Virus record (IMG/VR): IMGVR_UViG_3300046674_000362
Coordinates: 21,482 to 85,481 of that record
From: a virus
Length of the DNA: 64,000 nucleotides
Direction: 5' to 3' (one strand)
Shown: positions 14,391-57,249 of the stretch, in pieces
How positions within the stretch are numbered: position 1 is the stretch's first letter
Layout: each line of letters opens with the position of its first letter
Program-made: the position numbers and the translations under genes
Notes under the pieces: generated by a model
Seen by the model: the letters and a program-made list of their open reading frames with translations, nothing else
What the model was told of the DNA's origin: nothing
Database searches by the model: none

Positions 14391-14427
14391 GAATCGAATT
14401 GTACGCGCTCACAATTTGAATCGTCAA
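14391..14427 (-). promoter_or_regulatory. repeated sigma70 promoter with palindromic operator, copy 1
   Basis: TTGACG-ATTCAAATTGTGAGCGCG-TACAAT on minus strand. Confidence 0.85.
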
Positions 14428-14452
14428 GCGGTTCTTTTTTGTGACGCAAACG

Positions 14453-14477
14453 AAAAAGCCCGGACGTGCCGGGCTTC
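14453..14477 (-). terminator. intrinsic terminator
   Basis: GCCCGGCACGTCCGGGC plus T5; same hairpin as at 57170-57193. Confidence 0.7.
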
Positions 14478-14497
14478 GATGGGAGGGGAGGGAGGCG

Positions 14498-14905
14498 TCA
14501 GGCGCGCGCGGCCTGATCCGGGTCGTACAGCACCAGCGTGCCCGCAGGCAGCTCGTATTCAGAGGTCAGCACGCCCACGCCGCCAATGTTGTCGTCGCCG
14601 AACTCCCAGGCGGCCAGCAAAGTGAGTTCCGGGCTCACCGCGCCGTCCTCGCCCTTGATGGCGTATTCGTCCGCCCAGGTCGGCTCATCATAGGTGCCGA
14701 CGGCCAGCCCGCCCGCGCGCAGGATACGCTTCATGGCCCACCAGTACGGGCCGTAGCGCAGGTACGCCGTCAGGCTTTTCCCGAGCACCTTGCGGGTTTG
14801 CTCGATGAAGATGGGCAGCAGCGGCTTGCCGCCGACTTGCTTGGACAGGTCGGCCAGCTTTCCGCGCAGGTAGTTCGGGTCGATCTTGTAGTCTGGTTCG
14901 CTCAT
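14498..14905 (-). CDS. ulx: Ulx-like antirestriction accessory protein
   Basis: YLRYGPYWWAMKRIL resembles P1 Ulx YRSYGPYW; directly downstream of darB as in P1. Confidence 0.75.
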   Translation of the reverse strand: MSEPDYKIDPNYLRGKLADLSKQVGGKPLLPIFIEQTRKVLGKSLTAYLRYGPYWWAMKRILRAGGLAVGTYDEPTWADEYAIKGEDGAVSPELTLLAAWEFGDDNIGGVGVLTSEYELPAGTLVLYDPDQAARA

Positions 14906-14951
14906 ATCGTTCTATCGTTGGTGCCGCCCCGGAGTGGGGCGGCAGGTTATG

Positions 14952-17900
14952 TTACACGAGGTAGTCTTTGATGTTCAGCCCCAGGTGCGCAAACAGCGAT
15001 GCCACCGAAGCCACGTCCTTGCCATCGCTGAACTTCTCGCCGTCCTTGATGGTCAGGCGGAATGCCTTGCTCACGTTGTCGAACGTGCGGCCTTGCAATC
15101 CGGCTGCGCCTGCGGTGGCGATCTTTTCATGGGTCGGCGAACCGCGAGTCGTTTTAAGCAGAATGTATTCGTTGGCCTTGTAGAAGTAGCTCGCGGAATA
15201 GCGGTCTGCCGTTTTCATGTCGTCCAGGGTGCCCAGCTCGGCCGAGTTGACGCCCGGCACGCGGCGCAGCGCCTTGAGCATCCCGTCGAGGTCCACGCCT
15301 GCGGCATCAAGCGACTGCTTGGCGTTGTAGCCCTTGGCGTAGCTCCGCAGGCTCGACCAGATCGCGCCCACGTATTCCTGGGTGAGCTTTGCCGCCGTCG
15401 CCCAGTCCTTGACGTACATGCGCGCCGAGGCCGGGAGTTCTTGGCTGCTGCGGGCATTGTCCGCGCCCGCCACCAGCTCGACATACTCGCCGGTTTCCTT
15501 GAACAGCAGCTCGGCGAGCGCGCGGCCGTTCTTCTCGTAGAAAGCAAAGTCCGGTGAATAGCTGGGCGCGGCCATGATTTCGCTCGCCAGCGTCCCATCC
15601 TGCACGGCCTTGGAAATCGCAGCATACGCTGGGGAGGTGATGACGTACTTGCTCGACTCAGGGAACAGATGCCAGCGCTCCACACCATCATCAATCTTGT
15701 TGCGGGTCTTGGTGTAGGTGGAGTACAGGTAGCCCAGTGCGTCCTCCAGCGAGTCGATTTCCGCGACTTGCTGCTCGGTGCGGAACCAGTTCAGCGCCCA
15801 GGTGTCCAGCTCGTCCGGCGACTTCACGCTTGCCACGCCGCCCGGCAGCGCCAGCTTGAACGCCTCGTCAATGTCCAGCGCGGCGAGCGCCTTGCCGATG
15901 GTCAGGCCCGGCGTGATGGCGTCCAGATCGGCCTTCGTGACACGCAGCTTGTGCGCCACGACGTACACGGCCAGCTCCTTGAACTTGGCTTCGGGCGTCG
16001 CATAGCCGCCGTCACCGACGTTGCGCAGGTCGGTCAGGATGATCTGGCGATAGCCCTTGCCGTAGGACTGGATCAACGGCGCTTGCTCGGCCCTGATCTT
16101 GTCCGTCAGCTCGCCGCCCTTGGCATCCTGATCCAGCACGAACGGGAAGTAGGGCGCTTTGAAGCGGAAGCTGTCTGCGGTCATGGCGGCCGACGGAATC
16201 GGAACGTCCAGCGCCTCGCGCACGTCGGCCACCAGGGACGAATACAGCGACAGGTCGCTGGCCGTGAACGCGCCAACGGTTGCGATGGTCGCCTTGTCAG
16301 CCGCGACGGCGCGCGCTACCGTGGCCGCCCATTCCTCGGAGCCGCGTGCGATGAAGGTTGCGCCAGTCATGCGCAGCAGCTCGGTATCGGTCAGGTCGGC
16401 CGGGTTGAAGCCCACCAGACTGGTGCCGCGTCCGCGCGTCGGCTTGCGCACGACCAGCAGCTTGTTTTCAAAGTCCACGAAGCTGCCCACCACGGCCAGC
16501 GAGCCGGTCACGATTTCCGCCTCGCCCGCGTTGAAGGCGTCCAGATCGTCCTTGCTGTAGCCGTCGCCCGCGCGCATGTTGAAGCTCACGGCCGCCTCGT
16601 CCCTCATGCGGGTGGCGATGCCCAGGTCTTTCTGCCAGTTCGCATAGGCTGCCGTTTCCTTCATGGCGTCGGTAAGCCCGCCGAATTCGGACGGCGCAAC
16701 CGGCGTGCCGCGCGAATCGAGAGACAGGCCGCCCAGCAGCGAGAGCTGGTCCTTACGCTTGGATTCCAGTTCGGTGATCTGCCGGGACAGGCGAGCGGCC
16801 AGAATCGGGCCTTCGGTTTCGGACAGGCGCTCTTGCAACTTGTCGATGGCGCTGCGGGTCTGGTTCGCAGCCGCGAGCTTGGCCTTGACCCATTCCACGA
16901 AGCCGGTCAGCGGGCGATGCGCCGAGCCCTCGCCGTACTTGGCGAGCCACTTGGTCTGCGCGTCGATGATGCGCAGGCTTTGGAGCTGGGCCACGCGCAC
17001 GGCCGCGCGCTTCTGGCGCTTCTGGCGCTGCTCAATTTCCTCGCTGATGCGGTTCATCGCGCCAGCGTCGCCGACGGCGTTCGCCAGCAGCTCGTAGTCC
17101 TCCTTACTCATATCGCCCTCAATCTTGATCGAGGTCGAATCGCCATTCATCAGCGAGCCGATCCAATCGGCCTTGATGCCCACGAGCTTGCGCTTGTAGC
17201 CGTCGAACGTGCCGTCGGCGTCGTAGTGGTACACGCTCACTTTCGATACCGGGTTGCCCTGACGGACGCCGCGACCGTTGCGCTGATGGATCGAGTCAGG
17301 CGTCCAGCCGATAGTCATGTGGTGGATCGCTTGGCAGCCTTTTTGCAGGTTGATGCCCACCTCGGCCTTTTTGTTCGCAATAACGACGGTGTATTTATTG
17401 TCCTCGCCATCGGCGTTGAAACCGTCCTGCACGTCCTGCATACCGGCCGTGTCCACGGAAACCGCGTTGACGATCTTGATTTTCGATGCCGGGACGCCCA
17501 CCGCCTGCGTCAGCGCCAGCTTGATCTTGTGGTGCAAGCTCAGCTCATCGCAGAAAATGATCTGCTTGGCCTGCCCCATCCAGCGCGGCGTCGCGGCTTC
17601 GTTGCGGAAGTTCTCGATCATCGCGGCCAGCTTCGGGCTGATGCTTACCGACGGCTCGATGTCTTGCGCCGCCAGCAGCTTCAGCAGCACGTCCTGCGTC
17701 TCGAAGTCGGTAGACAGCAGCTCAACAGCCCGGCCATCGGCGGCCGCGCGGGTGCGCACGGTGATGAGGAACTTGGTGACGGACTCGCCGGTTTCCACGT
17801 CCTTGACCACGCGGGTTTTGATGTCGGCCGGGTCAGCGTTCGGGTCGCTGTAGTCGCGTTCTTCGACAACGTTTTTCTTGTTGAATGCCGCGATGGCCTT

Positions 17901-29837: not shown

Positions 29838-29867
29838 TTGACGGCTCTTATTGTGAGCGCATACAAT
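29838..29867 (+). promoter_or_regulatory. repeated sigma70 promoter/operator, copy 2
   Basis: TTGACG-GCTCTTATTGTGAGCGCA-TACAAT. Confidence 0.85.
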
Positions 29868-29896: not shown

Positions 29897-30823
29897 ATGG
29901 CTGCTGAATTCTTTGGAAATTGCCAGATTTGCGGGCGCGAACAGAAAGCCCACCCGCACAAGATCGCCAAGCATGGCTACACCGTGCAATACGGCTGGCA
30001 GTCAGGCGAGTGCTACGGATCGAACGGTGCGCCGATCCAAACGAGCTGCGACCTGATCGCTCGCGCTGTCGAGAGGGCGAAAGAGTACATCAAGCGCTCG
30101 CAGGAGGAAATCACTCGCCTGAACAGTGCAAACCCGCTGGGCGATAACGGCACCATCCTCGTCGTGATGAAGGTCCAGGGCATTGGTGGCAGCACGTATA
30201 ACGACTGGTGCCCGGCAACCGTTGTCCAGAATGATGCAGGCGATTACGAGGTACGCAACCACAACAGTAAGACCGTCGCTACTCTCCGCAGCTACAACTA
30301 CGACACCCTGAGCGATGCAATCAAGATGCTGGCCGGTCGCCGCGCCCGCTATCTGGTCGAAACAATCGGAGTGGCCGAGCAAAGCATCAAGGAAATGACG
30401 GCCCGCCTAACGAACTGGAAGCCTACCGAGCTGCGCCCAGTGACGGCCACCGACCGCGCCGCGACCGCGATCAAGGTTCACATGGTCGCCACCAAGTTCG
30501 GCCGCAAGACCGGCGTGTGCGTCGCCTCGGCATCTGGCGCGCAGGCTTACAAGCAGACCACCGACGACCGCTCGAAAGTCACTTGCGCGGCCTGCCTGAA
30601 GGAGCTGGCCCGTCTGGACGATCTGCCGCGCCTGAGGGCCGAGAAAGCCGAGAAAGAACGCCTTGCTGACATCAAGCGAGCCGAGCGCGAAATCAAGGAC
30701 TACACCAAGTACCTGAAGAACGCGACGACCGAGGCCGACAAGCTGTACTACGCTCGCGAACTGACCGAGGCCACCAACCGCCTGAACGAACTCAAGGCCG
30801 CCGCCCCAGCCGCCGCCCAGTAA
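29897..30823 (+). CDS. hypothetical protein with Zn-binding CxxC motifs
   Basis: Start MAAEFFGNCQICG after GGAGG; HGY motif, CAAC, C-terminal coiled coil. Confidence 0.75.
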   Translation: MAAEFFGNCQICGREQKAHPHKIAKHGYTVQYGWQSGECYGSNGAPIQTSCDLIARAVERAKEYIKRSQEEITRLNSANPLGDNGTILVVMKVQGIGGSTYNDWCPATVVQNDAGDYEVRNHNSKTVATLRSYNYDTLSDAIKMLAGRRARYLVETIGVAEQSIKEMTARLTNWKPTELRPVTATDRAATAIKVHMVATKFGRKTGVCVASASGAQAYKQTTDDRSKVTCAACLKELARLDDLPRLRAEKAEKERLADIKRAEREIKDYTKYLKNATTEADKLYYARELTEATNRLNELKAAAPAAAQ

Positions 30824-30857: not shown

Positions 30858-30887
30858 TTGACGCTCGCATATGTGAGCGCGTACAAT
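30858..30887 (+). promoter_or_regulatory. repeated sigma70 promoter/operator, copy 3
   Basis: TTGACG-CTCGCATATGTGAGCGCG-TACAAT. Confidence 0.85.
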
Positions 30888-31483: not shown

Positions 31484-31504
31484 CCACAAACTCATAGGGA
31501 AAAC

Positions 31505-32040: not shown

Positions 32041-32059
32041 ATCTCACAAGGAAACCAAC

Positions 32060-39233: not shown

Positions 39234-39275
39234 ATTCTGCGGCACCGCCCCCGCCGCGCCCGCGCTGGTTTTCCT
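39234..39275 (-). promoter_or_regulatory. putative late promoter AGGAAAA-N29-CAGAAT
   Basis: Motif copy 7; upstream of the fibre operon. Confidence 0.7.
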
Positions 39276-44563: not shown

Positions 44564-44943
44564 ACGCGCACCAGCGACGCATCCACCGCCGTGCGCTGCC
44601 GCCTGTAACCGGCTGCGGCCGACAGGGCCACAGTGGCACCACCATCTACCCCGACCTGATGTGTACCGATGGCTACATGAGCGATATGGACGCCGACGGC
44701 GACGACCCGAGCGCCGCGCGCCCGCCGTGCCAGCACTGCAACCCGGTCGAGCACGCCGAATGGGCGCGCGAGCAGCAGGATGAGGATGACGAACTTCCCT
44801 ATGGCCTGCGGCCTGACTCCAAAGGTCGTCTCATGTACGAATGCCGCCACTGCGGCGGCGACCGGGAATGGTGCGGCGAACCGCACGAATTTTGCAACGA
44901 CACTCACATGAACTGCGGCGGCTCGCCGTACTGCTTACCGTAA
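44560..44943 (+). CDS. Cys-rich hypothetical protein
   Basis: Multiple CxxC; ends CGGSPYCLP. Confidence 0.6.
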   Translation: MNAHQRRIHRRALPPVTGCGRQGHSGTTIYPDLMCTDGYMSDMDADGDDPSAARPPCQHCNPVEHAEWAREQQDEDDELPYGLRPDSKGRLMYECRHCGGDREWCGEPHEFCNDTHMNCGGSPYCLP

Positions 44944-44954
44944 AGGACGCATCA

Positions 44955-46262
44955 ATGAAACGCCATGAATTGAAAACCGACCCGGACGCCTTTAACGCGG
45001 TCCTGCTGGGGACAAAGACCCATGAAATCCGCAAGAATGATCGCGGCTTTGCCGTAGGCGACGAGCTGCTGCTGCACGAAACCGAGTTGGCCGAAGCTGA
45101 CCGCCCGACGGACCACGCGCACACTTACACCGGCCGCGAACTGCTGCGCCGCGTGACGCATATTCAGGAGGGCTACGGGCTCGCGCCGGGCTGGGCCATC
45201 CTGTCCATCGAGCGAGTGCCGCAAGAGGGCGACTGGATCGTGCGCGAGCGCCGCGACCCGGATGGGGCTCTGATGAGCTGCTTTGTTCAAGCGCCGCGCG
45301 AGGGCGACATGGCCTATGGCCTCGAAGTCCTCGGCGACGACTACGAGGGCTACGGCGACGTGGAACGCAAGCTAGAGCACTGCAAGATGATCGTGGCGCT
45401 GGTGAATGCCGCGCGCGGGCAGGTATCGCCTGCGGACTACGAGGAAGTGCTGGCCGACCATCGCCGCTTGGCGCGCGAGCTGGACGTGCTGCTGAACGGC
45501 GAGGAAGGCGCAGCCAAGCAAGCGAGCCTCGCCGACATCGTGGCCCAGGTGCGCCGCGAGCGCCAGCAGCCGCGCGATGAAACCTACCTGTTCGAGCACT
45601 GGGCGAAAGACCCGATCCGCGCCGCGAAAATCCCGCTGGCGAAGCACCCGAACGGCGCGTATACGGACACCCGCAGCTACCTCATCAACTACGGTTGGAA
45701 GTCGCGCGCAAAGCAGTTCGACGGCCTGTTCGCGAAGCCCGAGAACATCGACCCGTTCACCGACACTGGCGAGGGCCACAAGGACGCATCCTACGAACGC
45801 CTGCGCCTCGCCTGCGCCATCCAGCAGCCCGCTCCGATCCCCGATCAGATGGCGCTGGTATGGCGCGCGGACATTATGCGCATGCGCCATGACCTGACCC
45901 ACAAGCAGGCATTTTTCGACTACTACCGCCCGCTGTCACAGGCCATGCGCGACGTGATCGCCGAGCGCAAGGATCAGGTGACGCGCGAGGGCTACACCAC
46001 CGAGGACGACGATGCGCATGTGCAGGGCGAGCTGGGCGCGTATGCCGCCTACTACGCCATGCCGCCCGGTGCACGCGAATGGCCCGCGACGGAAACCGGC
46101 TACGGCGCTACCTGGGGCGAGGCAATCATTCCGGCCGACTGGACGCCGCCGAAGCCGGGCGACCGCCGCCGCGAGCTGGTGAAAGCTGGCGCACTGATAC
46201 TGGCCGACATCGAGCGTATCGACCGCGCTGACGCCCCCGCCACCACTGGAGAACAAGTATGA
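44955..46262 (+). CDS. DUF3850 (ASCH/PUA-like) multidomain protein
   Basis: MKRHELK...F.AV..G.KTHEIRKNDRGFAVGD.L.L.E N-terminus; C-terminal RRRELVKAGALILADIERIDR module. Confidence 0.75.
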   Translation: MKRHELKTDPDAFNAVLLGTKTHEIRKNDRGFAVGDELLLHETELAEADRPTDHAHTYTGRELLRRVTHIQEGYGLAPGWAILSIERVPQEGDWIVRERRDPDGALMSCFVQAPREGDMAYGLEVLGDDYEGYGDVERKLEHCKMIVALVNAARGQVSPADYEEVLADHRRLARELDVLLNGEEGAAKQASLADIVAQVRRERQQPRDETYLFEHWAKDPIRAAKIPLAKHPNGAYTDTRSYLINYGWKSRAKQFDGLFAKPENIDPFTDTGEGHKDASYERLRLACAIQQPAPIPDQMALVWRADIMRMRHDLTHKQAFFDYYRPLSQAMRDVIAERKDQVTREGYTTEDDDAHVQGELGAYAAYYAMPPGAREWPATETGYGATWGEAIIPADWTPPKPGDRRRELVKAGALILADIERIDRADAPATTGEQV

Positions 46263-46342: not shown

Positions 46343-46753
46343 ATGTCGCAGTTCTACCCGTCGATGACGACCGGCGAGCGCATCCTTAAGCTGGTGCCTG
46401 CCACGTCGGCCGAGCTTCTGGCGCAGCTCGACATCACCTCGACCGCGACGCTGCACAAATGGATCACGCGGCTGCGCAAGGACGGGAAAATCCATACCGG
46501 CCGGTGGCGGCGCGGCGAGAACAATTTCGTCGCCGTGCATGTGCTGGGCAAGGGAAAGGATGCGAAGCGCCCGAAGCCCTGGACCCCAGCCCAGCTACAG
46601 GCCCGGTATCGGAAGTCCCTGAAGGAATCCGGGCGTTACGTGGACTTCCTGATCGCCGCACGCAAGCGCGGCTATCGCTACCGCCAGCGGCGAGGACAGA
46701 AGCTCAAGATCAAGCCGGACCCGCTGCTGCAAATGTTTTACCGGCAGATATAA
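46343..46753 (+). CDS. basic winged-HTH DNA-binding protein
   Basis: TSAELLAQLDITSTATLHKWITRLRKDGKIH. Confidence 0.6.
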   Translation: MSQFYPSMTTGERILKLVPATSAELLAQLDITSTATLHKWITRLRKDGKIHTGRWRRGENNFVAVHVLGKGKDAKRPKPWTPAQLQARYRKSLKESGRYVDFLIAARKRGYRYRQRRGQKLKIKPDPLLQMFYRQI

Positions 46754-47456: not shown

Positions 47457-47497
47457 TTGACGGATCGAATTGTGAGCGCGTACAATTCGATCCGTCA
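47457..47497 (+). promoter_or_regulatory. repeated sigma70 promoter/operator, copy 4 (perfect 16-8-16 palindrome)
   Basis: TGACGGATCGAATTGT-GAGCGCGT-ACAATTCGATCCGTCA. Confidence 0.9.
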
Positions 47498-47534
47498 GCA
47501 GCGCATAGGGCGCGGCGGCCACAAGGAGAATGTG

Positions 47535-47702
47535 ATGCAAGAAATGATTATCAAGCCCGAGGGCTCCACGCCCGTTGCCGTGTACTACCGCATCGTGCGC
47601 AAGGATGAAATCGGCGAATACGTCCTCCTGAATGGCCGCCGCGCCTACATCGTCCGCAAGGACGGCCGCGCCTACGTCGATTACTACATGGACAAGAAAT
47701 AA
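47535..47702 (+). CDS. hypothetical protein
   Basis: 55 aa, AAGGAG RBS after promoter copy 4. Confidence 0.6.
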   Translation: MQEMIIKPEGSTPVAVYYRIVRKDEIGEYVLLNGRRAYIVRKDGRAYVDYYMDKK

Positions 47703-47704
47703 AC

Positions 47705-48043
47705 ATGGCAACCCACAAAATCACAAGCGAAATCGAAATCAAGCCCGGCCAATGGGTTTGCAGACTCCCGTTCTCCATGTTCTCCAGCCATCTGTGCGAT
47801 CGACCGCAACTGGTCATGGGAGCATCCGGGCAGCGTATCTATCTGGCCGAGACTAGCGGTGCGAACCAGGGCAACTACATTTCGCGCAGCACCGCCGCAT
47901 ACCTGTGCGACACCGAAGCGGAAGCGCTCGCCGTGTACGCGGTCAGCGAATCGCAGGCGCGCGCGCTCCAAGCGAGCCGGGATGCGATCAAGGCTGAACA
48001 CGAGGCCAAGATCGCTGCCCTGATCGCCGGGAGCGCAGCATGA
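47705..48043 (+). CDS. hypothetical protein
   Basis: 112 aa in operon. Confidence 0.6.
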   Translation: MATHKITSEIEIKPGQWVCRLPFSMFSSHLCDRPQLVMGASGQRIYLAETSGANQGNYISRSTAAYLCDTEAEALAVYAVSESQARALQASRDAIKAEHEAKIAALIAGSAA

Positions 48044-48600
48044 GCCAGCGCCCATTCGAGGTAGCGGCCCACAAGGCACCATCCCGCGAAGCGCTGCAAG
48101 CCCAGTGCGACGCCTTCAATTTCGAGTGCGCCGTCGGCGGCCCGGTCGCGGTTAAGCTCGACGGCCGCGACAAGCCCCTCATCACCACCACGCGCAGCGA
48201 GGCGCAAGTCCTGTCCGGGCACTCGGCCGTCGTGTGGCTGGACGGCGTGAGCGGGTGCTACCTGCTGGAGCGTGTCGCGCCGATCCCGCGCCCCGCGCCG
48301 CAGCATCTTGCCCCGGTTATCACTGAGGCCGGTGCCCGGATGCTTCGCCAGCACCTCGAAAGTGCCCTTGCGAACTCCCCCGGCTACCACATGGCACTGG
48401 TTCCGGGCGACGATGTACTTGCGCTGCTGGACAACATGCGCGCCGTGCCCCGCCTGCCCACGCCGAAGCAGCTCCGCGCAGCACTGCGCCACACCAGCGA
48501 TGCCGAGCTGGCGAAGTCGATCTATCTGGCGATGACCAGCGCCGAGGCGATCACACCCGAGGGACCGACCACCCGCATCCAGAAAGGACCGGCCCAATGA
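48040..48600 (+). CDS. hypothetical protein
   Basis: TTTRSEAQVLSGHSAVVWLDGVSGCY phage-type motif; ATGA overlap. Confidence 0.65.
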   Translation: MSQRPFEVAAHKAPSREALQAQCDAFNFECAVGGPVAVKLDGRDKPLITTTRSEAQVLSGHSAVVWLDGVSGCYLLERVAPIPRPAPQHLAPVITEAGARMLRQHLESALANSPGYHMALVPGDDVLALLDNMRAVPRLPTPKQLRAALRHTSDAELAKSIYLAMTSAEAITPEGPTTRIQKGPAQ

Positions 48601-48860
48601 GCATCCACACCGCCACGCGCCCGGTGCGCGTCTACCACCGCCCGTCGCGCCCGAAAGAGGGCGGCGGCATCCATTACCCGCTCGAAGTGCAGCACGCGCG
48701 CGGCCTGTTCCACCAGTTCAGCATCCAGAGCGAGGAACTGGACACTGGCGCGGCGCATTGCCCCGTCGCCGTGGTCGAGCTGGCCGACGGCTCTGTTATC
48801 ACCCCGGCCGCGCACATGATCCAGTTCCTCGACATCGCGCAGGAGCCTAGCCATGCGTAA
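48597..48860 (+). CDS. hypothetical protein
   Basis: 87 aa; GLFHQF...AVVELADG. Confidence 0.6.
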   Translation: MSIHTATRPVRVYHRPSRPKEGGGIHYPLEVQHARGLFHQFSIQSEELDTGAAHCPVAVVELADGSVITPAAHMIQFLDIAQEPSHA

Positions 48861-49272
48861 GCCGACCACCATCACCGCCGTGCGCCCGGTGGACGAGGAT
48901 CACCAAGTCGTCACCGTCGAAGGCGGGGGAGGGCAGTACCGCCGCGAGCCGTGCGGCGGCTGTCCGTGGCGCGTAGACCAGACCGGCCAGTTTCCGGCCG
49001 GGGCGTTCCTTGTGTCGGCGAGCACGGCCTACGACATGGCGCGGAACAAATTTTCATGCCACGAATCGGGCTCGAAGAAACCCGCGACGTGCGCCGGGTT
49101 CCTGATGCGCGGCGCGGATCATAACCTTGCCGTGCGCCGCGCCTACAGCAGCGGCATGTACGATTTCAACGCGATCAGCGACGGCGGCCACGAGCTGCAC
49201 GCCAGCTACCGCGCGATGGCCGAGGCGAACGGCTGCGACCCGGACGCCCCTGAACTCGCCCCATGCCGATAA
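48853..49272 (+). CDS. DUF6283-like Cys-rich protein
   Basis: PCGGCPWRVD...FSCHES...TCAGFL. Confidence 0.7.
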   Translation: MRKPTTITAVRPVDEDHQVVTVEGGGGQYRREPCGGCPWRVDQTGQFPAGAFLVSASTAYDMARNKFSCHESGSKKPATCAGFLMRGADHNLAVRRAYSSGMYDFNAISDGGHELHASYRAMAEANGCDPDAPELAPCR

Positions 49273-49280
49273 GGACCACC

Positions 49281-49478
49281 ATGACCACACTCTACGCGAT
49301 ACGCAGCGCCCTGCCGCGCCGCCTGTGCGACGCTGCGAGCCCGATGCCGATGGCCGACAAGGACCGCTTTCAATGGAGCCACCCGGACGCAGAATTCATC
49401 GAGCCGTTCTTCAACCTCGGCCTGTACAAGTGCCCGCACTGCAAGCTGACCTTTCACGCACCGAGGCGGACGCAATGA
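49281..49478 (+). CDS. small Zn-ribbon hypothetical protein
   Basis: WSHPDA...YKCPHC; AAGGA RBS. Confidence 0.6.
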   Translation: MTTLYAIRSALPRRLCDAASPMPMADKDRFQWSHPDAEFIEPFFNLGLYKCPHCKLTFHAPRRTQ

Positions 49479-49912
49479 AGCTGCTGCTGATCGCCTGTTC
49501 CGAGCGCAAGCTGGGCGGCACGCACCGCGCGCTGGACCTGTACCGAGGAACCATGTACAACGTGCTGCGCAAATGGATGCCAGCAGCACCGCCCGACATT
49601 TGCATCCTGTCGGCGAAGCATGGCCTGCTGCACGCGGACACCATGACCGAGAACTACGAACAGCCGATGACGCCCGCGCGCTCGCGCGAGCTGCTGGCGC
49701 AACCGCTGGCGCTGGCCGGGTTCGAGGGCAAGCGCTACAGCGCGGTATTCATCGCCGCGCCGTCCGCCTATCGCGAGCTGGGCCGCGCCTACGTTGACCA
49801 GCTCCGCGCGACCGGGATCATCGCCCAGGACGCGCCGGTAAGCGGGACCGAGGGAGGTATCGGCACGCAGCGCGGCCAGCTCGGCGCATACCTGCGGGGA
49901 CTCGGCCAATGA
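49475..49912 (+). CDS. DUF6884 (YaaA-related) protein
   Basis: LIACSERK...ALDLYRG...ILSAKHGL...YEQPM signature. Confidence 0.75.
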   Translation: MKLLLIACSERKLGGTHRALDLYRGTMYNVLRKWMPAAPPDICILSAKHGLLHADTMTENYEQPMTPARSRELLAQPLALAGFEGKRYSAVFIAAPSAYRELGRAYVDQLRATGIIAQDAPVSGTEGGIGTQRGQLGAYLRGLGQ

Positions 49913-50289
49913 TGCCAAGCTTCACCCCGGCCGAAATCATCCGGCAGCGCCGCCAGCAAATGCTGATCCACTCGCACCTGTACTACCGCATGGACGCGCC
50001 GATCATCAGCGACGACCAGTGGCAGCGCTGGGCCGACGAGCTGGCGCAGCTCCAGCGCCAGCACCCTGAGCCGATCAATTTCTACGACCGCGAATTCGCA
50101 GACTGGGACGGCTCGACCGGCATGCACTTGCCGAATGATGGCTGGGTCATCGAGAAGGCCGATCTGGTGCGCCGCCTGCACGCGGGCGACCACCAGCGCC
50201 CGGATGCCGAGAAAACGCCGCCAGCGCCCGCTATGCAAGCGCCAGCAACGCCGCCGCCCATGCCGCCCGCGCAGTTCTCGCTGCTCTAG
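49909..50289 (+). CDS. stand-alone NAD+-dependent DNA ligase domain Ia-like protein
   Basis: IHSHLYYRMDAPIISDDQW...ELAQLQRQHPE resembles the LigA N-terminus; no ligase catalytic core. Confidence 0.75.
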   Translation: MMPSFTPAEIIRQRRQQMLIHSHLYYRMDAPIISDDQWQRWADELAQLQRQHPEPINFYDREFADWDGSTGMHLPNDGWVIEKADLVRRLHAGDHQRPDAEKTPPAPAMQAPATPPPMPPAQFSLL

Positions 50290-50379
50290 CGCAATGAGCG
50301 CGCATACATTGCGCGCCTGCATAGCGGGCTCGGCCGTGGAGGGCACACTGTAGGAACCGCCACCACCGGAGAGCCGCCG

Positions 50380-50602: not shown

Positions 50603-51034
50603 TCAGGCGCGCAGCAGCACGGCGCTATGGCCCTCGGCCTCCTGTTCCGCATGGGTGCCGATCAGGGAATGGGTCGAGGTCTTGGCGGTGCTGATGGGCG
50701 AGCAACACAATCGCTCATGCGCGCTGGCGCTGGGCGTGTGCAGCGCCGCCACCACGGCCACGCCTGCCGATACCGCGAGCGGCCCCACCAGCGCCATTTC
50801 CAGGCCGGGGCGATCTTGCGCGCGGGCGTCCAGGCTGGCCGGGCTCGCGACGAGCTGGGCGCGCTCGACGGCGACAGCCGGGGCGGCGATGGCGACGACA
50901 TCCTTGGTGGCGCGGGTTTGCTCGACGCGCTGCACGCCGGGGTCCGGCTGATGCGGCATGGCCTGCGCACTCACGCTGAAGGCCAGCGCGCACACCGCCA
51001 TCATCGCAAGGGTTCGCATTCGGGATTTGGACAT
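50603..51034 (-). CDS. exported hypothetical protein
   Basis: Signal peptide MSKSRMRTLAMMAVCALAFSVSAQA; AAGGAG RBS. Confidence 0.6.
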   Translation of the reverse strand: MSKSRMRTLAMMAVCALAFSVSAQAMPHQPDPGVQRVEQTRATKDVVAIAAPAVAVERAQLVASPASLDARAQDRPGLEMALVGPLAVSAGVAVVAALHTPSASAHERLCCSPISTAKTSTHSLIGTHAEQEAEGHSAVLLRA

Positions 51035-51266
51035 AAAGCTCCTTCTATGGTTGAGGTTGAACTACGGGGAAATGCTTATTCTTCGCGGCCAGTCACGGCC
51101 ACAGCAGGCAGGCGCAGATCACCCGCGCCAGCTCGGCGGCACATGCCCCGAGCGCCATGAACGCCACCGCGAAGCAACACGCGCCGAGCGGGCTTACGTC
51201 CGGTTCTCCCTGGCGGTGAATCCTTTTCTTTGCGGCTGGCATGACTGTTAAATCCCGATGATTACG

Positions 51267-51544: not shown

Positions 51545-51574
51545 TTGACGCATCGAATTGTGAGCGCGTACAAT
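51545..51574 (+). promoter_or_regulatory. repeated sigma70 promoter/operator, copy 5
   Basis: TTGACG-CATCGAATTGTGAGCGCG-TACAAT. Confidence 0.85.
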
Positions 51575-51607: not shown

Positions 51608-52417
51608 ATGAACAAAGCCGCCTGCATCGCCTACGCTTCCCGCTGCCGCCTCGCTTTCGCCGAGTCCAGCGAGCGCGCCGCAAAGTACGCCGTCGCATTC
51701 GGCTCCGAGTCCGACGCATTCATCGCCGAGACACGCGAAATGGCGCGCGCCAACGACGCCGCCCAAGAGTGGGACAAGCTGGCCGCCATGCACCCGCAGA
51801 CCCGCTCCAAGCTGTTCCGTGACCAGTCGCTGCCGTCGGAAATCTTCGGCTTCGGCGCGGCACCAGTCGCCAAGGAGCAGGAGCTGGCCGCCGCCACGAG
51901 CGCAGCCTGGGCCGCCGAGGCGAAGGCGCAACGTGCGTTCGAGCGCGCCGACAACACCTACGCGGTGGACGATCCCCGCCTTGCCAAAGCCCGCGCGAAG
52001 CTGGACGCCGCACGCGCCGCTTCGCGCGCAGCAATCAAGGCCGAGTCCGACCATCTGCGCCAGCGCGAGGCGCGCGCCATCCTGGCCGACGAAGGCCCGC
52101 GACTGGTTTCGCGCCTGATGGAATGCCTGATGGGCGAGGACGCCCCGGCCGAGGGCACCGACATTTACGCCGACGACTTCCCGCTCGAAACGAATGACCC
52201 CTGGCTGCTGCGCGCCATCGCGATCCTCAAGAGCAAAGTCCCGCTTGACCCGGCCGAGGTGCCGAAGCTGTGCGAATTCCTGATCGGCATGTGCAACGGC
52301 GCGACGCCCGAGCCGCGCGACGCCGACATTTACGCCCGGACCACGCTCGACGGCGACGCCTACGTGCTGCGCGCCGCCCAGGTGCTCACCGAGGCCGCCG
52401 CCGCCCTGACCAAATGA
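51608..52417 (+). CDS. hypothetical protein
   Basis: Start re-set to MNKAACI downstream of the promoter; internal duplicated DIYA motif. Confidence 0.65.
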   Translation: MNKAACIAYASRCRLAFAESSERAAKYAVAFGSESDAFIAETREMARANDAAQEWDKLAAMHPQTRSKLFRDQSLPSEIFGFGAAPVAKEQELAAATSAAWAAEAKAQRAFERADNTYAVDDPRLAKARAKLDAARAASRAAIKAESDHLRQREARAILADEGPRLVSRLMECLMGEDAPAEGTDIYADDFPLETNDPWLLRAIAILKSKVPLDPAEVPKLCEFLIGMCNGATPEPRDADIYARTTLDGDAYVLRAAQVLTEAAAALTK

Positions 52418-52458
52418 CCACCCACCCGGTACGCCGGGCACCATTGGAGAATCACCCC

Positions 52459-52596
52459 ATGAGCATGACCGCCCTGATCCTGTCCCTGAGCATGGAGCGC
52501 CACACTGAGCTGACGGCCAAGTACGGCCGCCGCGCCGCCGACCGCGCCCTGTTCGCCACCGCCGCTCGCCTGATCGCGGGCGAGTACCGGAACTGA
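52459..52596 (+). CDS. small hypothetical protein
   Basis: 45 aa, GGAGA RBS. Confidence 0.5.
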   Translation: MSMTALILSLSMERHTELTAKYGRRAADRALFATAARLIAGEYRN

Positions 52597-52601
52597 TCCC
52601 A

Positions 52602-52790
52602 ATGCCGGGAGCAGAACTGAACGGCACCGAGGCCGCAAACCGAGCCGTTATCGAGTCGAACGCGAAGGGCGCAGGCATCATCTTCCTGACCCGGAGCGAG
52701 TATCAGGACTTGTGCTACCGCGCAAACCTGTCCGAGCTGTCCCGCTACAAGGGCAAGACCATCTTCATCGTAAGCGACCCTATCGAATGA
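52602..52790 (+). CDS. small hypothetical protein
   Basis: 62 aa in operon. Confidence 0.5.
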   Translation: MPGAELNGTEAANRAVIESNAKGAGIIFLTRSEYQDLCYRANLSELSRYKGKTIFIVSDPIE

Positions 52791-52833
52791 CAACCCGCCC
52801 GGTGCGCCGGGCATCAACTTGGAGAACTGTCCC

Positions 52834-53148
52834 ATGAGCACCACCATCACCCTGAAGATCAGCAAGAAAATGGCCGCGCTGCTGACCGGCATCATCCCCG
52901 AGGGCGGCACTGTCGCCGCAATCGCCGCCGAGGTCGCAGCCGGGCGCGTTGCCGCCGACGGGTCCGTGACGGTCGAAACCGAGCGCGAGAACGGCATGGC
53001 GCTACTCGGCATCGCCAAGGGCCGCATGAGCATGCTGGACGCGGCGCTGCTGTCGGCCGAAGGCCCGGACAAGCACAAGCTGCTGGGCGAGCACAGCGCA
53101 TGGCGCGCGCTGGCCAAGCAGCTCCCCGAGTTCACGCCTGCCGCGTAA
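52834..53148 (+). CDS. hypothetical protein
   Basis: 104 aa, GGAGA RBS. Confidence 0.6.
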   Translation: MSTTITLKISKKMAALLTGIIPEGGTVAAIAAEVAAGRVAADGSVTVETERENGMALLGIAKGRMSMLDAALLSAEGPDKHKLLGEHSAWRALAKQLPEFTPAA

Positions 53149-53149
53149 C

Positions 53150-53338
53150 ATGGCCGCCACCAGCTCCCCGCCCCGCCCCGACATCCACCCGTACAAGGTC
53201 GAGCAGCAGCCGGGCGGGCAATGGGCGGTCGTCAGCCCGAACCTCGGCCCGCTCCCCGAATACACCCGCGCGACCGAGGGCGAGGCCATCACCGCAGCGC
53301 TGTACTGCCGCCGCGTAGACAACCACGAAATCGACTAG
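53150..53338 (+). CDS. small hypothetical protein
   Basis: 62 aa, tightly packed. Confidence 0.5.
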   Translation: MAATSSPPRPDIHPYKVEQQPGGQWAVVSPNLGPLPEYTRATEGEAITAALYCRRVDNHEID

Positions 53339-53368
53339 CCTGCATCCGGCCAACACGAGGAACCACCC

Positions 53369-53740
53369 ATGAACAAACCCGACGACTTCATGACCCGCCT
53401 GACCGAATGGATGGGCCGCGATCTGACCGAGGCCGAACAGCAGCGCGCGCAGGCTATGCGCGACGACGGGCGGCCGCTCACCATCATCGGCCGCGCGCTG
53501 AAGGCCGCCGCTGTCGCTGCCGCTGCGATCACCACGCCCGAGCACATCATGCGCAAGCTGCGCCAGCGTCACGAGCTGGACGCGGACGACACCTCGCGCG
53601 ACGCCGAGCTGAACGCCCTTCTGCCGCTGCAAAAGCTGCGCCACATCGCCGCCTGGGAGATTGGCAGCCCGGACTGGGCCGACCACTTCATAACCTGGGC
53701 GAAGCAATGCGGCATCACCATCGTGGACCCGCGCGACTGA
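53369..53740 (+). CDS. hypothetical protein
   Basis: 123 aa, GAGGA RBS, terminator follows. Confidence 0.65.
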   Translation: MNKPDDFMTRLTEWMGRDLTEAEQQRAQAMRDDGRPLTIIGRALKAAAVAAAAITTPEHIMRKLRQRHELDADDTSRDAELNALLPLQKLRHIAAWEIGSPDWADHFITWAKQCGITIVDPRD

Positions 53741-53759: not shown

Positions 53760-53788
53760 AAGGCCCGCCGCGAGCGGGCTTTTTTTTC
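53760..53788 (+). terminator. intrinsic terminator
   Basis: GCCCGCCGCGAGCGGGC plus T8. Confidence 0.8.
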
Positions 53789-53791
53789 CTC

Positions 53792-53821
53792 TTGACGAAT
53801 CAAATTGTGAGCGCGTACAAT
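53792..53821 (+). promoter_or_regulatory. repeated sigma70 promoter/operator, copy 6
   Basis: TTGACG-AATCAAATTGTGAGCGCG-TACAAT. Confidence 0.85.
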
Positions 53822-53871
53822 CCGATTCATCAGCGGCGCACGGTGCGCAGCGCATAACCCGGAGAATGACT

Positions 53872-54147
53872 ATGAAGCTCGAAACCTACCTCGCCAAACA
53901 GGGCTACATCACCTACGTCAGCGAAGGCGACGACGTGTTCGAGGGCGAGGACGGCCAGCGCAACATCGAAATCTACGAGAGCCGCGATGACATCGAGCCT
54001 ATCGGCTGGTTCGTGTCGCTGCCGGGGCGCGCTGAGCTGGAGTGGCGCAACATTTTCGGCAAGGTCACCACCGGCACCATGTTCACCGAGGCCGAGGCCA
54101 AAGCCGCCGCCAAGGCCCACAAGTTCTACCCGATCACCTCGAAGTAA
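53872..54147 (+). CDS. hypothetical protein
   Basis: Start MKLETY after GGAGA. Confidence 0.65.
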   Translation: MKLETYLAKQGYITYVSEGDDVFEGEDGQRNIEIYESRDDIEPIGWFVSLPGRAELEWRNIFGKVTTGTMFTEAEAKAAAKAHKFYPITSK

Positions 54148-54149
54148 CC

Positions 54150-54362
54150 ATGCGCGCCACTCCGCACCGCTTCACGCCTGGGGCGTACAGCGCCACCGAC
54201 CCGGCGAACGGCCGCATGTACACCGTACAGGGCGACAGGATTGAGCGGCACCACTACCGGCACGGCCGCGTCACGCTGGTGCTGGTTGACCCGGCCGCAA
54301 GCCCGGAGCTGGCCGCCCGTATCATGGCGGCCATCGAAACCACCACCACGAAAGAAGCATGA
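54150..54362 (+). CDS. hypothetical protein
   Basis: 70 aa in operon. Confidence 0.5.
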   Translation: MRATPHRFTPGAYSATDPANGRMYTVQGDRIERHHYRHGRVTLVLVDPAASPELAARIMAAIETTTTKEA

Positions 54363-54559
54363 TCATGAGCAGAGGCATCAATCGCAAGTATTCCGCAGGC
54401 GTGAAATGCAACGCTTCGGGCTCTGACTTCTATAGCTACGCAGCGGGCTCGCCTGATGCCGACGGCCGAGCGGCCTGCCCGATGTGCGGCAAGCGCGTGA
54501 AGCTGCGCGAGGTGCGGACATACATCAAGAGCTGGCTCATACCGGCGCATAACACCTAA
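54359..54559 (+). CDS. Zn-ribbon small protein
   Basis: CNASG...CPMCGKRVKL...IPAH. Confidence 0.55.
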   Translation: MIMSRGINRKYSAGVKCNASGSDFYSYAAGSPDADGRAACPMCGKRVKLREVRTYIKSWLIPAHNT

Positions 54560-54663
54560 AACGACCGCTTTTGTACACGGCTTGCAACACCGAACAGAAC
54601 CTAGCCTATTTCTTTCTGGACACCCGCTATAATTCGCACACCCATTTAGGACACAAGGACCAA

Positions 54664-55056
54664 ATGAACACCGCCACCCACCAACAAGAGGCCACCGAAA
54701 CGCGCCTCGACAATGCCCTCTGGCTGCTGATGCAGTTCCCAATCCATCGCTACCTGATGAGCTGCGCGCACGGCCGCTGGGATGGCGCGGAAAAGGCTAC
54801 CCGCCACATCGAGCTGTGCAGCATCGTGGTAGCGGTCGAGCACGGCTGCATCAACCTTGACGAAGCCCGCCTCGAACACTTGGACGACTACCGCGCCGTG
54901 CATGAGAGCACCCAAAGGCTGACCGACAACATGGACGAGGTAATCGGGTTCCCGCTCGAATCGGACCCGGATTACGACGTGCTCGCCCCGATGTTCTTCG
55001 ACTGGTTCATGCGCTATGCGCGCGAGGCCATCGCCGCTACTGGGAGCGCAGCATGA
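54664..55056 (+). CDS. hypothetical protein
   Basis: Start MNTATH after AAGGA; TATAAT at 54628-54633. Confidence 0.6.
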   Translation: MNTATHQQEATETRLDNALWLLMQFPIHRYLMSCAHGRWDGAEKATRHIELCSIVVAVEHGCINLDEARLEHLDDYRAVHESTQRLTDNMDEVIGFPLESDPDYDVLAPMFFDWFMRYAREAIAATGSAA

Positions 55057-55601
55057 GCGCCGTCAGCGAAGCGCTGATGCGCCGCATTGGCAAGATCAAG
55101 GAGCTGGCCGAGCGCGGCGTCGATGGCGAGAAGGCCGCCGCCCAGTCGATGCTGGAAAAAATTCTGGTGAAGCACGGCCTGACGCTGGCCGATATTGAGG
55201 GCAAGCCCAAGCGCGAGTGGGTCGAGCTGACATTCTCTGGCGAGTATGAAAAGCTGCTGCTGACCCAAATTGTCCGCAAGGCGGCAGGGGTGAGCGGCGA
55301 TCTGGTGTACCGCTGGAAGAAGGGCACCCGGACGCGCATCAAGTTCGAGCTGTCCCCGGTCGAGCACGTCGAGGTCGAATTTATGTTCGAGCTGATGAAA
55401 AAGGCGCTGGCCGATGAATTCAGCAAGGTGCTGTCCGCCTTCATCCACACGAATAGGCTGTTTGGCCCGAGCGTCGAGGATGACGAGGACGACAAGGACG
55501 AGCCCGAGAAAACCCCTGAGGAGCGCGCCCGCCTGCGCCAGATTGCGGCGATGATGAGCGTGATGAGCCCGGTCAAGGTGCATAAGGCCATCGAGCAATG
55601 A
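55053..55601 (+). CDS. DUF2786-like protein
   Basis: RIGKIKELAERGVDGEKAAAQSMLEKILVKHGL. Confidence 0.7.
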   Translation: MSAVSEALMRRIGKIKELAERGVDGEKAAAQSMLEKILVKHGLTLADIEGKPKREWVELTFSGEYEKLLLTQIVRKAAGVSGDLVYRWKKGTRTRIKFELSPVEHVEVEFMFELMKKALADEFSKVLSAFIHTNRLFGPSVEDDEDDKDEPEKTPEERARLRQIAAMMSVMSPVKVHKAIEQ

Positions 55602-55813
55602 GACTTTGCGCGATCCTGCACGGCGAAGGCATGGGCAGCCCGCCTGACGAAAACGGCTGCCATCTGCCAGCCAACCACGGCGGCCAGCCGCATGAGTACG
55701 TCGCCACCGATGGCCGCACCTATCAATGGGAAACCGACCTCGCCTGCGACTGCGACCACTGTATGCGTTGCGAGGGCGACTACTGCACTACCTACTGGGA
55801 AAAGGAACTATGA
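55598..55813 (+). CDS. Cys/His-rich small protein
   Basis: 71 aa, ATGA-coupled. Confidence 0.55.
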   Translation: MRLCAILHGEGMGSPPDENGCHLPANHGGQPHEYVATDGRTYQWETDLACDCDHCMRCEGDYCTTYWEKEL

Positions 55814-56553
55814 GCGACAACACAAATTGCAAGGGCGCTTTCCGCGCATTCTATGATGGCGAAATCGAAATCCCTACGCGCCCCGCCCGCGTATGCGTCA
55901 GCCCCTTGGCTACCCGCCCGGTCCTGTACACGGACACCGTGGGCGGCGTGCAAACCTGCCGCGATGACCTGTGGGCCATCACCACCGACGAGCTGAACGC
56001 GCTGGCCGCCCCGGACGCGCTGGCCGCCGTCGAGCACCACACCTACGGCAGCATCGCCGAGCGCATGACTGGCAAGCACCGCGATGACAGCGGCACCGTG
56101 TACGTCACCCTGGCCGATGCCGAGGCGGCCGTGCGCGCCGTGGCGAGCACCAGCACGGCATGGCGGCAGACCGCCGAAACCAAGGACCGGCAGGCCGCCG
56201 AGGTGCGCGCGCACCTCCAGCAGACCCGCATGGCGCTGCGCTGGGCGCTGGAATGGATTGACGCCGTGCCGGGCGATACCCCGCTGCCGACCATGCCCGG
56301 CTTCGACCGCGACTACGTGAACGTCCTGCTTGATACCCCGACCACCTCCGCACGCCCGGCCATCGGCACCGAAGAACAGGCCGATGCAATGCTGGCGGAC
56401 CTGACCCGCGAGTACCACCAGCGCGCTGCCCCGATCCTCAAGATTCTGACGACCTTTGCAGCGTTGCGTCCGCCCCCACCCATGCTCATATCGCGCGAGC
56501 ATGCCGAGCGCTTGGGCTTCACGCCGTCCAACCTGCCGGGAGAGCCAGAGTGA
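55810..56553 (+). CDS. hypothetical protein
   Basis: Start MSDNTN after AAGGA; contains the [16 protein letters not shown] phage module. Confidence 0.65.
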
Positions 56554-57164
56554 GCCGCGTATTCGCCTACTGCCGGGTATCGACCGGCGACCAGACCACC
56601 GAGAACCAGATTGCCGAGATTGCGGGGGCAGGGTTCGCCATCGACGCCAAGCGCGCCATTGCCGAGACTATCAGCGGCTCCGTGGCCGCGACCGAGCGCC
56701 CCGGCTTCACGAAACTGCTGGACCGCCTGGAGCCCGGCGACGTGCTCGTGGTAACGAAGCTGGACCGCCTGGGCCGCAACGCGATGGACTTGCGCGCCAC
56801 CGTGTCCAACCTTGAGCGCGCGGGAATTCGCGTGCATTGCCTCGCGCTGGGCGGCATGGACCTCACCAGCCCGGCCGGGAAGATGACGATGGGCGTTATC
56901 GCGGCCGTTGCCGAGTTCGAGCGGGACTTGCTCATCGAGCGCACGAACGCGGGCCTTGCGCGGGCCAAGAAAGACGGCAAGCGCTTCGGCCGCCCGCCTG
57001 CACTGGACGAGGATGCACGCGGCATGGCGCGGGCTATGCTGGCCGCTGGCGTGCCTGTCTCCGAAGTCGCCCGCGACCTGAACACCTCCCGCGCCACCAT
57101 CATCCGGGCGCGCGATTCCGTACCGCTGCCGCCCGCTCCCGAGCCCGGCCAGCTCGCCGCCTGA
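56550..57164 (+). CDS. serine recombinase (resolvase/invertase, Pin-like)
   Basis: [10 protein letters not shown] catalytic Ser, [24 protein letters not shown] and C-terminal HTH. Confidence 0.92.
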
Positions 57165-57169
57165 CCACC

Positions 57170-57193
57170 GCCCGGCACGTCCGGGCTTTTTTT
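57170..57193 (+). terminator. intrinsic terminator
   Basis: GCCCGGCACGTCCGGGC plus T7. Confidence 0.8.
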
Positions 57194-57219
57194 CGTGTCG
57201 CGTCACGATTAAATCACGC

Positions 57220-57249
57220 TTGACGAATCGAATTGTGAGCGCGTACACT
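57220..57249 (+). promoter_or_regulatory. repeated sigma70 promoter/operator, copy 7
   Basis: TTGACG-AATCGAATTGTGAGCGCG-TACACT. Confidence 0.85.

Follow-up and report, generated by a model that had tools for sequence, protein, structure and literature searches.

Repeated sigma-70-type promoter units at the bounds of accessory-gene cassettes in a lineage of P1-like phages

The DNA analysed here (the window) comprises 64,000 nucleotides, positions 21,482 to 85,481 of the virus record IMGVR_UViG_3300046674_000362, and forms the final 64 kb of one contig of 85,481 bp, designated G000; coordinates of promoter copies, cassettes and genes are window positions unless marked as genome positions. Seven nearly identical repeats of this window are best described as predicted sigma-70-type promoters, each of which stands at the head of a separate block of small genes, and this description, which is supported by the evidence below, makes them a plausible co-regulated set. 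On balance we favour a fuller reading, in which the repeats are early promoter units that probably overlap the site of a regulator belonging to this lineage and that double as joints for homologous recombination. Under this fuller reading, the host RNA polymerase would use the seven repeats as early sigma-70 promoters, with each unit driving its own accessory-gene block, and a protein bound to the short block of sequence beside the −10 element would turn off these scattered early operons, whether in the prophage or at a later stage of infection. Cassettes would be deleted, inserted and moved between promoter slots, each of them arriving pre-wired to the common control signal. Repeated promoters at cassette bounds are a familiar phage design, and not the lac-operator or lox-like system that an initial annotation of the window had suggested.

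Promoter copies and their conservation in relatives

All seven repeats reported in the initial annotation were re-found, as copies of TTGACG-N18-TACA(A/C)T which all contain TGTGAGCGC(G/A)TACA, at 14398-14427 on the minus strand and at 29838, 30858, 47457, 51545, 53792 and 57220 on the plus strand. The 14-mer TGTGAGCGCRTACA gave seven matches at no more than one mismatch against 0.06 expected, and the full pattern TTGACG-N18-TACAMT gave the same seven matches against 0.14 expected, with none of 100 shuffles reaching seven in either search. No extra copy of the 14-mer was detected at up to two mismatches in the whole 85,481-bp genome, the first 21.5 kb included, and a weight matrix built on the 32 promoters described below scored the seven copies at 28-36 bits, with the next best site of G000 at 12 bits. 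The looser pattern TTGACN-N16-19-TANNNT has nine sites in the genome, the seven copies among them, and the four copies that lie within a scanned stretch match 9-10 of the 12 consensus positions. Each copy is intergenic, with a ribosome-binding site and an ATG 40-75 nt downstream. The consensus fit, these downstream start signals and the recurrence of the family in relatives bear out the view that the repeats are promoters heading gene blocks, and the estimate of about 40 small genes behind them also held, with about 42 open reading frames (ORFs) called on composition behind the seven promoters. A phage sigma factor (sigma-70 region 2) was not detected in G000.

Relatives were drawn from IMG/VR, where G001 (91 kb) and G002 (87 kb) were reached through a portal-protein search, and G005 (88 kb), G006 (93 kb) and others through a relaxed promoter pattern, in whose results five identical matches in low-GC contigs, and probably two more, represent chance. 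G001 and G002 are syntenic with G000, at 70-80% nucleotide identity in the shared parts; a 12-kb megablast query found no near-identical relative among 50,697 phage records, and the exact G000 promoter pattern had no match in the viral and genome contig collections searched. With one mismatch allowed per element, and with two evident false positives inside coding sequence dropped, 32 promoters were collected, namely seven in G000, six in G001, seven in G002, six in G005 and six in G006. Thirty of the 32 promoters have TGAGCGC at positions −20 to −14, and T-12, A-11, A-9 and T-7 are present in all 32, while the stretch from −31 to −24 is mixed; at −13, 26 promoters have A and six have G, and these six all belong to G000. 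TGATCGC is found in two promoters, both in G006 (L076:19690-19715 and L077:3850-3877), and these are the sole departures from the block in the collection. The distance between the −35 hexamer and the −10 is 17 bp in 10 promoters and 18 bp in 22, and this shift of the −35 register indicates that the block is in register with the −10 and not with the −35. At orthologous promoters, such as those before the DUF6011 gene, the distal spacer has diverged and the block has been kept. Two further genomes, G007 and G008, carry 4-5 copies of the block each, against 0-1 for a reversed control pattern, and in each of the five promoter-rich genomes a single copy, that at the DarB/portal junction, runs on the other strand.

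Outside this group, the promoter family is absent from two distant relatives, G003 and Xanthomonas phage Rb1, and the four candidate sites of G003 include no clustered sigma-70-like promoters. A search of 401 Burkholderiales genomes returned no instance of the full pattern, and the Pusillimonas genome that holds a distant provirus is without the 14-bp block TGAGCGCRTAMANT; these are samples, and neither of them lent support to the idea of a host operator. The motif was not found in print in the literature searched (supplements excluded), where its 12-mers occur only as unrelated primers.

The units follow a common plan, with an optional terminator hairpin, the −35 TTGACG, a spacer of 17-18 bp, TGAGCGC-R-TAnAnT including the −10, and then a leader of one of two kinds, which in some units is a short GC-rich hairpin and in the others is short and has a strong ribosome-binding site. 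The copy-1 unit (14366-14474, minus strand) has its terminator hairpin at 14458-14474, the −35 TTGACG at 14422-14427, the block and −10 at 14398-14411 and the GC-rich leader hairpin at about 14366-14383. The copy-6 unit (53760-53851, plus strand) consists of a terminator at 53760-53782, a promoter at 53792-53821 and a leader hairpin at about 53833-53851, and the copy-7 unit (57170-57279, plus strand) of a terminator at 57170-57186, a promoter at 57220-57249 with the −10 TACACT, and a leader hairpin at about 57261-57279. The terminator that had been described as common to copies 1 and 7 was seen upstream of both, as the hairpin GCCCGGCACGTCCGGGC with a T-run. Copy 4 (47457-47517, plus strand) can be read directly from the sequence as perfect 16-bp inverted arms around the asymmetric 8-bp GAGCGCGT, again as first described, and has a leader hairpin at about 47499-47517. 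Copy 2 (29838-29867, plus strand), with A at −13, and copy 3 (30858-30887, plus strand) are without the leader hairpin and head a 308-aa zinc-ribbon gene and the DUF6011 operon, respectively; the orthologues of copy 3 in G001, G002 and G005 precede the same gene. Copy 5 (51545-51574, plus strand) has the lac-operator-like core discussed below. Upstream of copy 3 lies a hairpin without a T-run, and copies 2, 4 and 5 have none. A degenerate look-alike of the invariant block, which scores 12 bits against 28-36 and is without a −35 element, was also observed at 50291-50310 (plus strand), enclosed in the palindrome GCGCAATG...CATTGCGC (50280-50320) just past the stop of the Nlig-Ia gene at 49909-50289; either a decayed promoter unit or a terminator could account for this palindrome.

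The leader shared by copies 1, 4, 6 and 7 was likewise recovered, as the element GCnGCGC-N4-5-GCGCnGC, and the hairpin GCnGCGC-loop-GCGCnGC occurs in 17 of the 32 promoters of the five genomes. It is always present at the DarB/portal slot, usually at the slot behind the serine recombinase gene, and never at the zinc-ribbon and DUF6011 slots, a distribution that divides the promoters into two classes. No compensatory change was found among its six predicted pairs, and a structure in the leader RNA and a site in the DNA are therefore not distinguishable on this basis.

Gene blocks and their exchange at promoter copies

G000 is, as judged from its gene content, a circularly permuted temperate P1-like phage. 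A tblastx comparison with phage P1 matches PacB, DarB, DarA, the portal protein Prt, Pro, Tub, gp25, Hdf, HrdC and Cin, and the PacB match is split over the contig ends, which indicates the circular permutation; the nearest named relative of the portal is that of Xanthomonas phage Rb1 at 53% identity, followed by P1-group phages at 28%. Outside the window lie a CI-like repressor gene (HTH_3 and Peptidase_S24) facing a small winged-helix Cro-like gene, O-like and P-like replication genes, NinB, a Holliday-junction resolvase, a 232-aa protein with a helix-turn-helix (HTH) adjoining the small terminase, and RecT-like, exonuclease, RdgC-like, ParB-like, ParA-like and endolysin genes. Since ParA and ParB are present and an integrase is absent, G000 is probably kept as a plasmid prophage.

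The promoter units also rather probably act as joints for homologous recombination, because they form direct repeats of 45-110 bp in a phage that carries RecT and an exonuclease. The 500-bp flanks of the seven G000 promoters were compared with G001, G002, G005 and G006, giving 28 comparisons in which adjacency was taken as lying within 250 bp. Only two were collinear through the promoter; in 13 one flank reached a promoter copy (within 250 bp) and the other was unrelated, in two the flanks lay behind two different promoter copies, in seven there was homology on neither side, and in four the homology did not adjoin a detected copy. A break at a promoter copy was thus seen in 15 of the 28 comparisons. 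A unit of 1,020 bp (promoter, 308-aa gene and hairpin) lies exactly between copies 2 and 3, and in G005 this unit is missing, with a single promoter joining the copy-2 upstream flank to the copy-3 downstream flank; the 308-aa gene is present in G002 and G006, and nowhere in G001 and G005. Relocations were also observed, such as the copy-1 cassette, whose 197-aa gene stands in G002 behind the post-recombinase promoter (66% aa identity), and the 234-aa gene of the copy-7 block, whose homologue in G005 (63% identity) stands at a different slot, about 250 bp behind promoter 9267. The upstream flank of copy 5 has homologues adjoining promoter copies in G005 and G006, and for the cassette downstream of copy 5 none of G001, G002, G005 and G006 shows nucleotide homology within 500 bp. 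Contigs of four DNA runs from rhizosphere metagenomes, three of which may be the source of this DNA, showed only cross-mapping of the repeats, with the copy-1 locus mapping onto copy 7 and the copy-3 downstream region onto copy 6. Exchange of cassettes by ordinary homologous recombination between the repeated units is therefore partly supported by these comparisons, at the level of a prediction from genome sequences.

Most proteins behind the seven promoters have no family in Pfam, PHROG or PADLOC, the exceptions being DUF6011, DUF6283, an Nlig-Ia domain and a Cin-like small serine recombinase, and PADLOC applied to ten cassette proteins returned no defence gene above noise. The copy-1 cassette (13367-14347, minus strand) contains two genes of 197 and 118 aa without a family and has a terminator at its end, after which the portal gene is preceded by a different signal of AGGAAAA type. 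At 13290-13345 (minus strand) a terminator and then GCAGGAAAATCAG were observed ahead of the portal gene, and the same short sequence appears again near 58736-58756. The copy-2 cassette (29897-30823, plus strand), between copies 2 and 3, is the single 308-aa gene, whose product is zinc-ribbon-like at its N-terminus, and the copy-3 operon (30917-34309, plus strand) contains the DUF6011 gene (30917-31483) and eight small ORFs. A homologue of the DUF6011 gene is present in 478 phage records, of which 296 carry the name of a Pseudomonas phage, and the top ones among the matches listed are Pseudomonas phage genomes of about 63-66 kb. Many of the Pseudomonas phages with such a homologue are, we presume, virulent and of PB1 type, and with that presumption the homologues are a weak pointer to an early lytic role of the copy-3 operon.

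The copy-4 operon (47535-50289, plus strand) includes genes for a DUF6283 protein (48853-49272) and the Nlig-Ia domain protein (49909-50289); the DUF3850 protein (44841-46262) is encoded upstream of copy 4 and behind none of the seven promoters. The copy-5 block (51608-53740, plus strand) holds a gene of 269 aa and small ORFs without a family, the copy-6 block (53866-57164, plus strand) ends with the Cin-like small serine recombinase gene (56550-57164; Resolvase and HTH_7), and the copy-7 block (57298-60449, plus strand) holds seven ORFs without a family, the 234-aa gene among them. The presence of cassette genes in the relatives is patchy, and the serine recombinase is among the best conserved accessory proteins, with 73-81% aa identity in four relatives; no inverted repeat of at least 18 nt, as might bound an invertible segment for it, was found in the variable tail-fibre-like region at 35800-39400. 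Within the plus-strand accessory block, a 143-aa ORF (50603-51034, minus strand) with a signal-peptide-like N-terminus and a 49-aa ORF are the sole minus-strand genes, and both are without homologues in the relatives. The divergent pair 50603-51034 and 51093-51242 was considered as a repressor pair and rejected, since the 143-aa product is signal-peptide-like and without a homologue in the relatives. Outside the promoter family, 60556-61960 (minus strand) encodes Hcp (PF05638, E = 2e-39) and a Tae4-like amidase (PF14113, E = 9e-10), and this block has no nucleotide homology in G001, G002, G005, G006 and G007.

Candidate regulators and alternative explanations

The 7 bp before the −10 are fixed and the rest of the spacer drifts, and for this reason the block could be an overlapping site for a lineage-specific DNA-binding protein other than CI, a proposal to which we assign an even chance. 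Common to all copies is the 12-bp quasi-palindrome GTnnGCGCnnAC, whose outer G and C are replaced by A and T in some copies and whose right half is constrained by the −10, and which is compatible with a dimer site having one good half (GTGAGC) and one compromised half. CI and Cro themselves were rejected as the binder. The cI/cro intergenic region (genome positions 9990-10198, outside the window) is AT-rich and contains ATTATAAGCAT-type repeats and an ATAAAG-N17-CTTTAT dyad, which are common to G000, G001 and G002 (three phages that may be homoimmune), and both the ATTATAAGCAT-type and the ATAAAG/CTTTAT repeats are absent near the seven promoters. The 11-mer CGAATTATAAG of this region agrees with CGAATTGTGAG at nine of 11 positions, which was judged a coincidence because the promoter flanks of the relatives do not follow their own immunity regions. 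A tblastx comparison of the complete P1 sequence with G000 revealed no homologue of the P1 repressor C1; the final 1.5 kb of the P1 record, where we take the c1 gene to lie, gave only pieces of 13-35 aa. In Rb1, six copies of the palindrome ATACCTGCnGGTA were noted at record positions 4719, 15859, 82774, 84380, 84927 and 89198, two of them flanking the cI gene region and four dispersed, which could represent a dispersed CI-operator network in that related phage.

Two lineage-restricted proteins of the window were considered as candidate regulators, and as DNA binders they are leads, not findings. The first (33471-33998, plus strand; 175 aa) is encoded in the copy-3 operon, is present in all five promoter-rich genomes and has a conserved C-terminal strand-helix-helix resembling a ribbon-helix-helix. 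Its AlphaFold model has a pLDDT of 85.5, VIA-align places the ribbon-helix-helix proteins TraM, Rv0298 and MazE6 only among tied rows (Z 3.9-4.3), and the best match of its profile to PDB sequences was a 'KORA domain' chain at E = 0.34, which is not significant. The second (46343-46753, plus strand; 136 aa, pI 11) has N-terminal 60 residues that model as a winged helix, with a putative recognition helix invariant in seven of seven homologues; the model has a pLDDT of 70.7, and for residues 5-65 most of the top-50 VIA-align rows are winged-helix DNA-binding domains, at Z 4.8-5.6 with 45-59 residues aligned in all but one row. Foldseek on both models returned nothing at E <= 0.001, and profile searches of the candidates against PDB sequences returned nothing significant. 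Tentatively, TGAGCGC-R-TAnAnT might be the operator of a lineage-restricted master regulator, with the 175-aa and 136-aa proteins as candidates, which would silence or shut off dispersed early operons in the manner of C1, beside a lambda-type CI immunity, with captured cassettes enrolled at once; we regard this specific version as possible and somewhat doubtful.

Several observations count against the favoured reading as a whole. Part of the invariance of the block stems from the way the promoters were collected, with the 7-mer limited to at most one mismatch, and its fixed register with the −10 in all 32 promoters would suit recognition by RNA polymerase itself just as well. The CI/Cro intergenic region contains no copy of the motif, the fold evidence for both candidate proteins is weak (that for the 175-aa protein being not above noise), and the 136-aa protein has no homologue in G002. 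Only copies 1, 6 and 7 are directly preceded by a canonical hairpin with a T-run (3/7). A coverage-based test found breaks at 13 of 35 promoters and at 48 of 185 other gene ends of the same regions, a difference that is not significant (Fisher p = 0.22), with random points broken 18% of the time; the whole region is mosaic, and some of the coincidences of breakpoints with promoters may arise from each cassette carrying its own promoter. From the earlier proposal that the repeats serve as crossover points, it can thus be retained that indels and relocations end at promoter copies, while neither an exchange of integron or lox type nor an enrichment of breakpoints was borne out.

The strongest alternative, which we consider improbable, is that the units are plain promoters with no dedicated regulator, constitutive and of 'moron' type, in which TGAGCGC either is read by RNA polymerase or sigma-70 itself, where it might compensate for the long 18-bp spacer, or is kept by descent and gene conversion; the units would also be expressed from the plasmid prophage. 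This would account for the exact register of the block with the −10, the block never lying away from a promoter, and for an immunity region without an operator copy and a search without a binder. The cassettes, moreover, are promoter-gene-terminator units like morons, and identity at variable positions amounts to 0.63 among the G000 copies as compared with 0.42 among orthologues, indicating homogenisation by copying between units. However, no sigma-70 contact, those of extended −10 elements included, is known to read a G+C-rich block at −20 to −14, and the absence of the full pattern from the Burkholderiales sample indicates that it is not a host promoter type there. Homogenisation is also weak in the other four genomes, at 0.39-0.46 within genomes against a background of 0.35 for unrelated pairs, and the block is still fixed in them, which argues for selection over copying. 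Seven constitutive, near-consensus promoters in a prophage would moreover be unusual for genes shared with phages that we take to be virulent.

A much less probable alternative, and in our judgement a very unlikely one, is that the repeats are operators of a repressor of the LacI/GalR family, encoded by host or phage, and form a lac-like, metabolite-controlled switch. Its attraction is the core of copies 1, 4 and 5, which matches the symmetric lac operator at 18 of 20 positions as first noticed (2/20 differ), with the dyad centre GAGC|GCGT coinciding with the operator centre; the operator string quoted in the initial annotation does occur in listed papers on LacI promoters. This likeness is not kept in the relatives. 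The left arm AATTGTG occurs only in G000, the relatives having TTTATG, AAACGTG or TTTTGTG there (the lacO-like arm reads TTTATGAGC, AAACGTGAGC and TTTTGTGAGC in them), dyad symmetry about GAGC|GCGT falls from 84/126 (67%) in G000 to 53/108 (49%) in G001 and 49/126 (39%) in G002, and the right half is merely the −10 hexamer. The search of the phage for a LacI-family repressor or a tyrosine recombinase, which had been recommended as a check, yielded no LacI-type HTH (PF00356; 0 matches in G000, control search positive in 9 of 14 genomes) and no tyrosine recombinase (PF00589; 0 matches in G000, control positive in 14 of 14). The LacI/GalR reading is thus not sustained, with its arm and dyad specific to G000 and no LacI HTH encoded. 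As the G000 copies share 0.63 of variable positions and the arm and dyad are confined to this genome, the long dyad and the 18/20 match are, on the aligned promoters, one variant recently spread within G000 and not features of the family. A LexA box was also considered for the outer TTGT-N8-ACAA of G000, which has the 4-8-4 layout of such boxes, and rejected because the relatives have ACGT or TTAT on the left.

Least probable of all, and hardly credible, is that the repeats are sites of site-specific recombination, whether lox/FRT-like, integron-like or for the Cin-like serine recombinase: the 16-bp arms and asymmetric 8-bp spacer of copy 4, together with a conserved serine recombinase gene that in all five genomes precedes a promoter copy with a genome-variable downstream cassette, speak for it, but the phage has no tyrosine recombinase, the arms hold for copy 4 and largely for the other G000 copies and not for the relatives, although the serine recombinase is conserved there, an 8-bp spacer does not suit the 2-bp crossover core of Hin, Gin and Cin sites, the inverted copy keeps the same orientation and neighbours in five genomes with no inversion seen, and cassettes also change at slots far from the recombinase gene.

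Relation to known systems and significance

Coordinate control through one short operator repeated at dispersed plasmid promoters is the arrangement of the IncP KorA/KorB system and of the IncN CUP repeats. The promoter units of G000 resemble these in having one short site at several dispersed promoters of a plasmid-like replicon, and they differ from the IncP system in that no KorA/KorB-type regulator was identified in G000 and its ParB-like protein has no link to the motif. The likeness to the C1 regulon of P1, as annotated in AF234172, is one of architecture and not of letter-by-letter sequence, both having dispersed early operons with their own sigma-70 promoters and a short asymmetric site overlapping them, and the virion and Dar gene set of G000 are also P1-like; unlike P1, G000 has no C1 homologue and has lambda-type CI/Cro immunity, and the operators of P1 take varied positions and orientations relative to its promoters (AF234172), whereas the register in G000 is fixed.

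Closest in design are the PeSLs (promoter-early stem-loops) of T4-type phages, which two papers describe as units of a strong sigma-70-like promoter and a stem-loop terminator, located between non-essential ORFan genes of hyperplastic regions and mediating modular shuffling, with indels and replacements between related phages ending at the units, which implies homologous recombination (Arbiol et al. 2010, PMC2839356; Comeau et al. 2014, PMC4122927). The G000 units are similar in having sigma-70-like promoters, in standing among ORFan genes and in the indels of relatives that end at them. They are different in that G000 is a temperate P1-like phage and not of T4 type, with 6-7 units per genome, a canonical terminator at only three of the seven, an almost invariant 7-bp block beside the −10, a leader hairpin at about half of the collected promoters (17/32) and no significant breakpoint enrichment. 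By analogy, the G000 units would work like PeSLs, while lying outside the PeSL set as it is described there.

The lac-operator likeness thus appears as the coincidence of one genome, and its recognition as such avoids a misleading line of experiments. What is gained is a testable promoter grammar for an uncultured lineage of P1-like soil phages of 85-93 kb, which would indicate the roughly 40 ORFan genes that are switched on together and those that are swappable cargo, and which would extend the PeSL idea, that of promoter/terminator units doubling as recombination joints, from virulent T4-type to temperate P1-like phages. The invariant 7 bp beside the −10 offer a handle for fishing out the regulator, and if the tentative proposal of a lineage-restricted master regulator should be true, the repeats would give a family of phage-plasmids a plug-and-play system for accessory genes.

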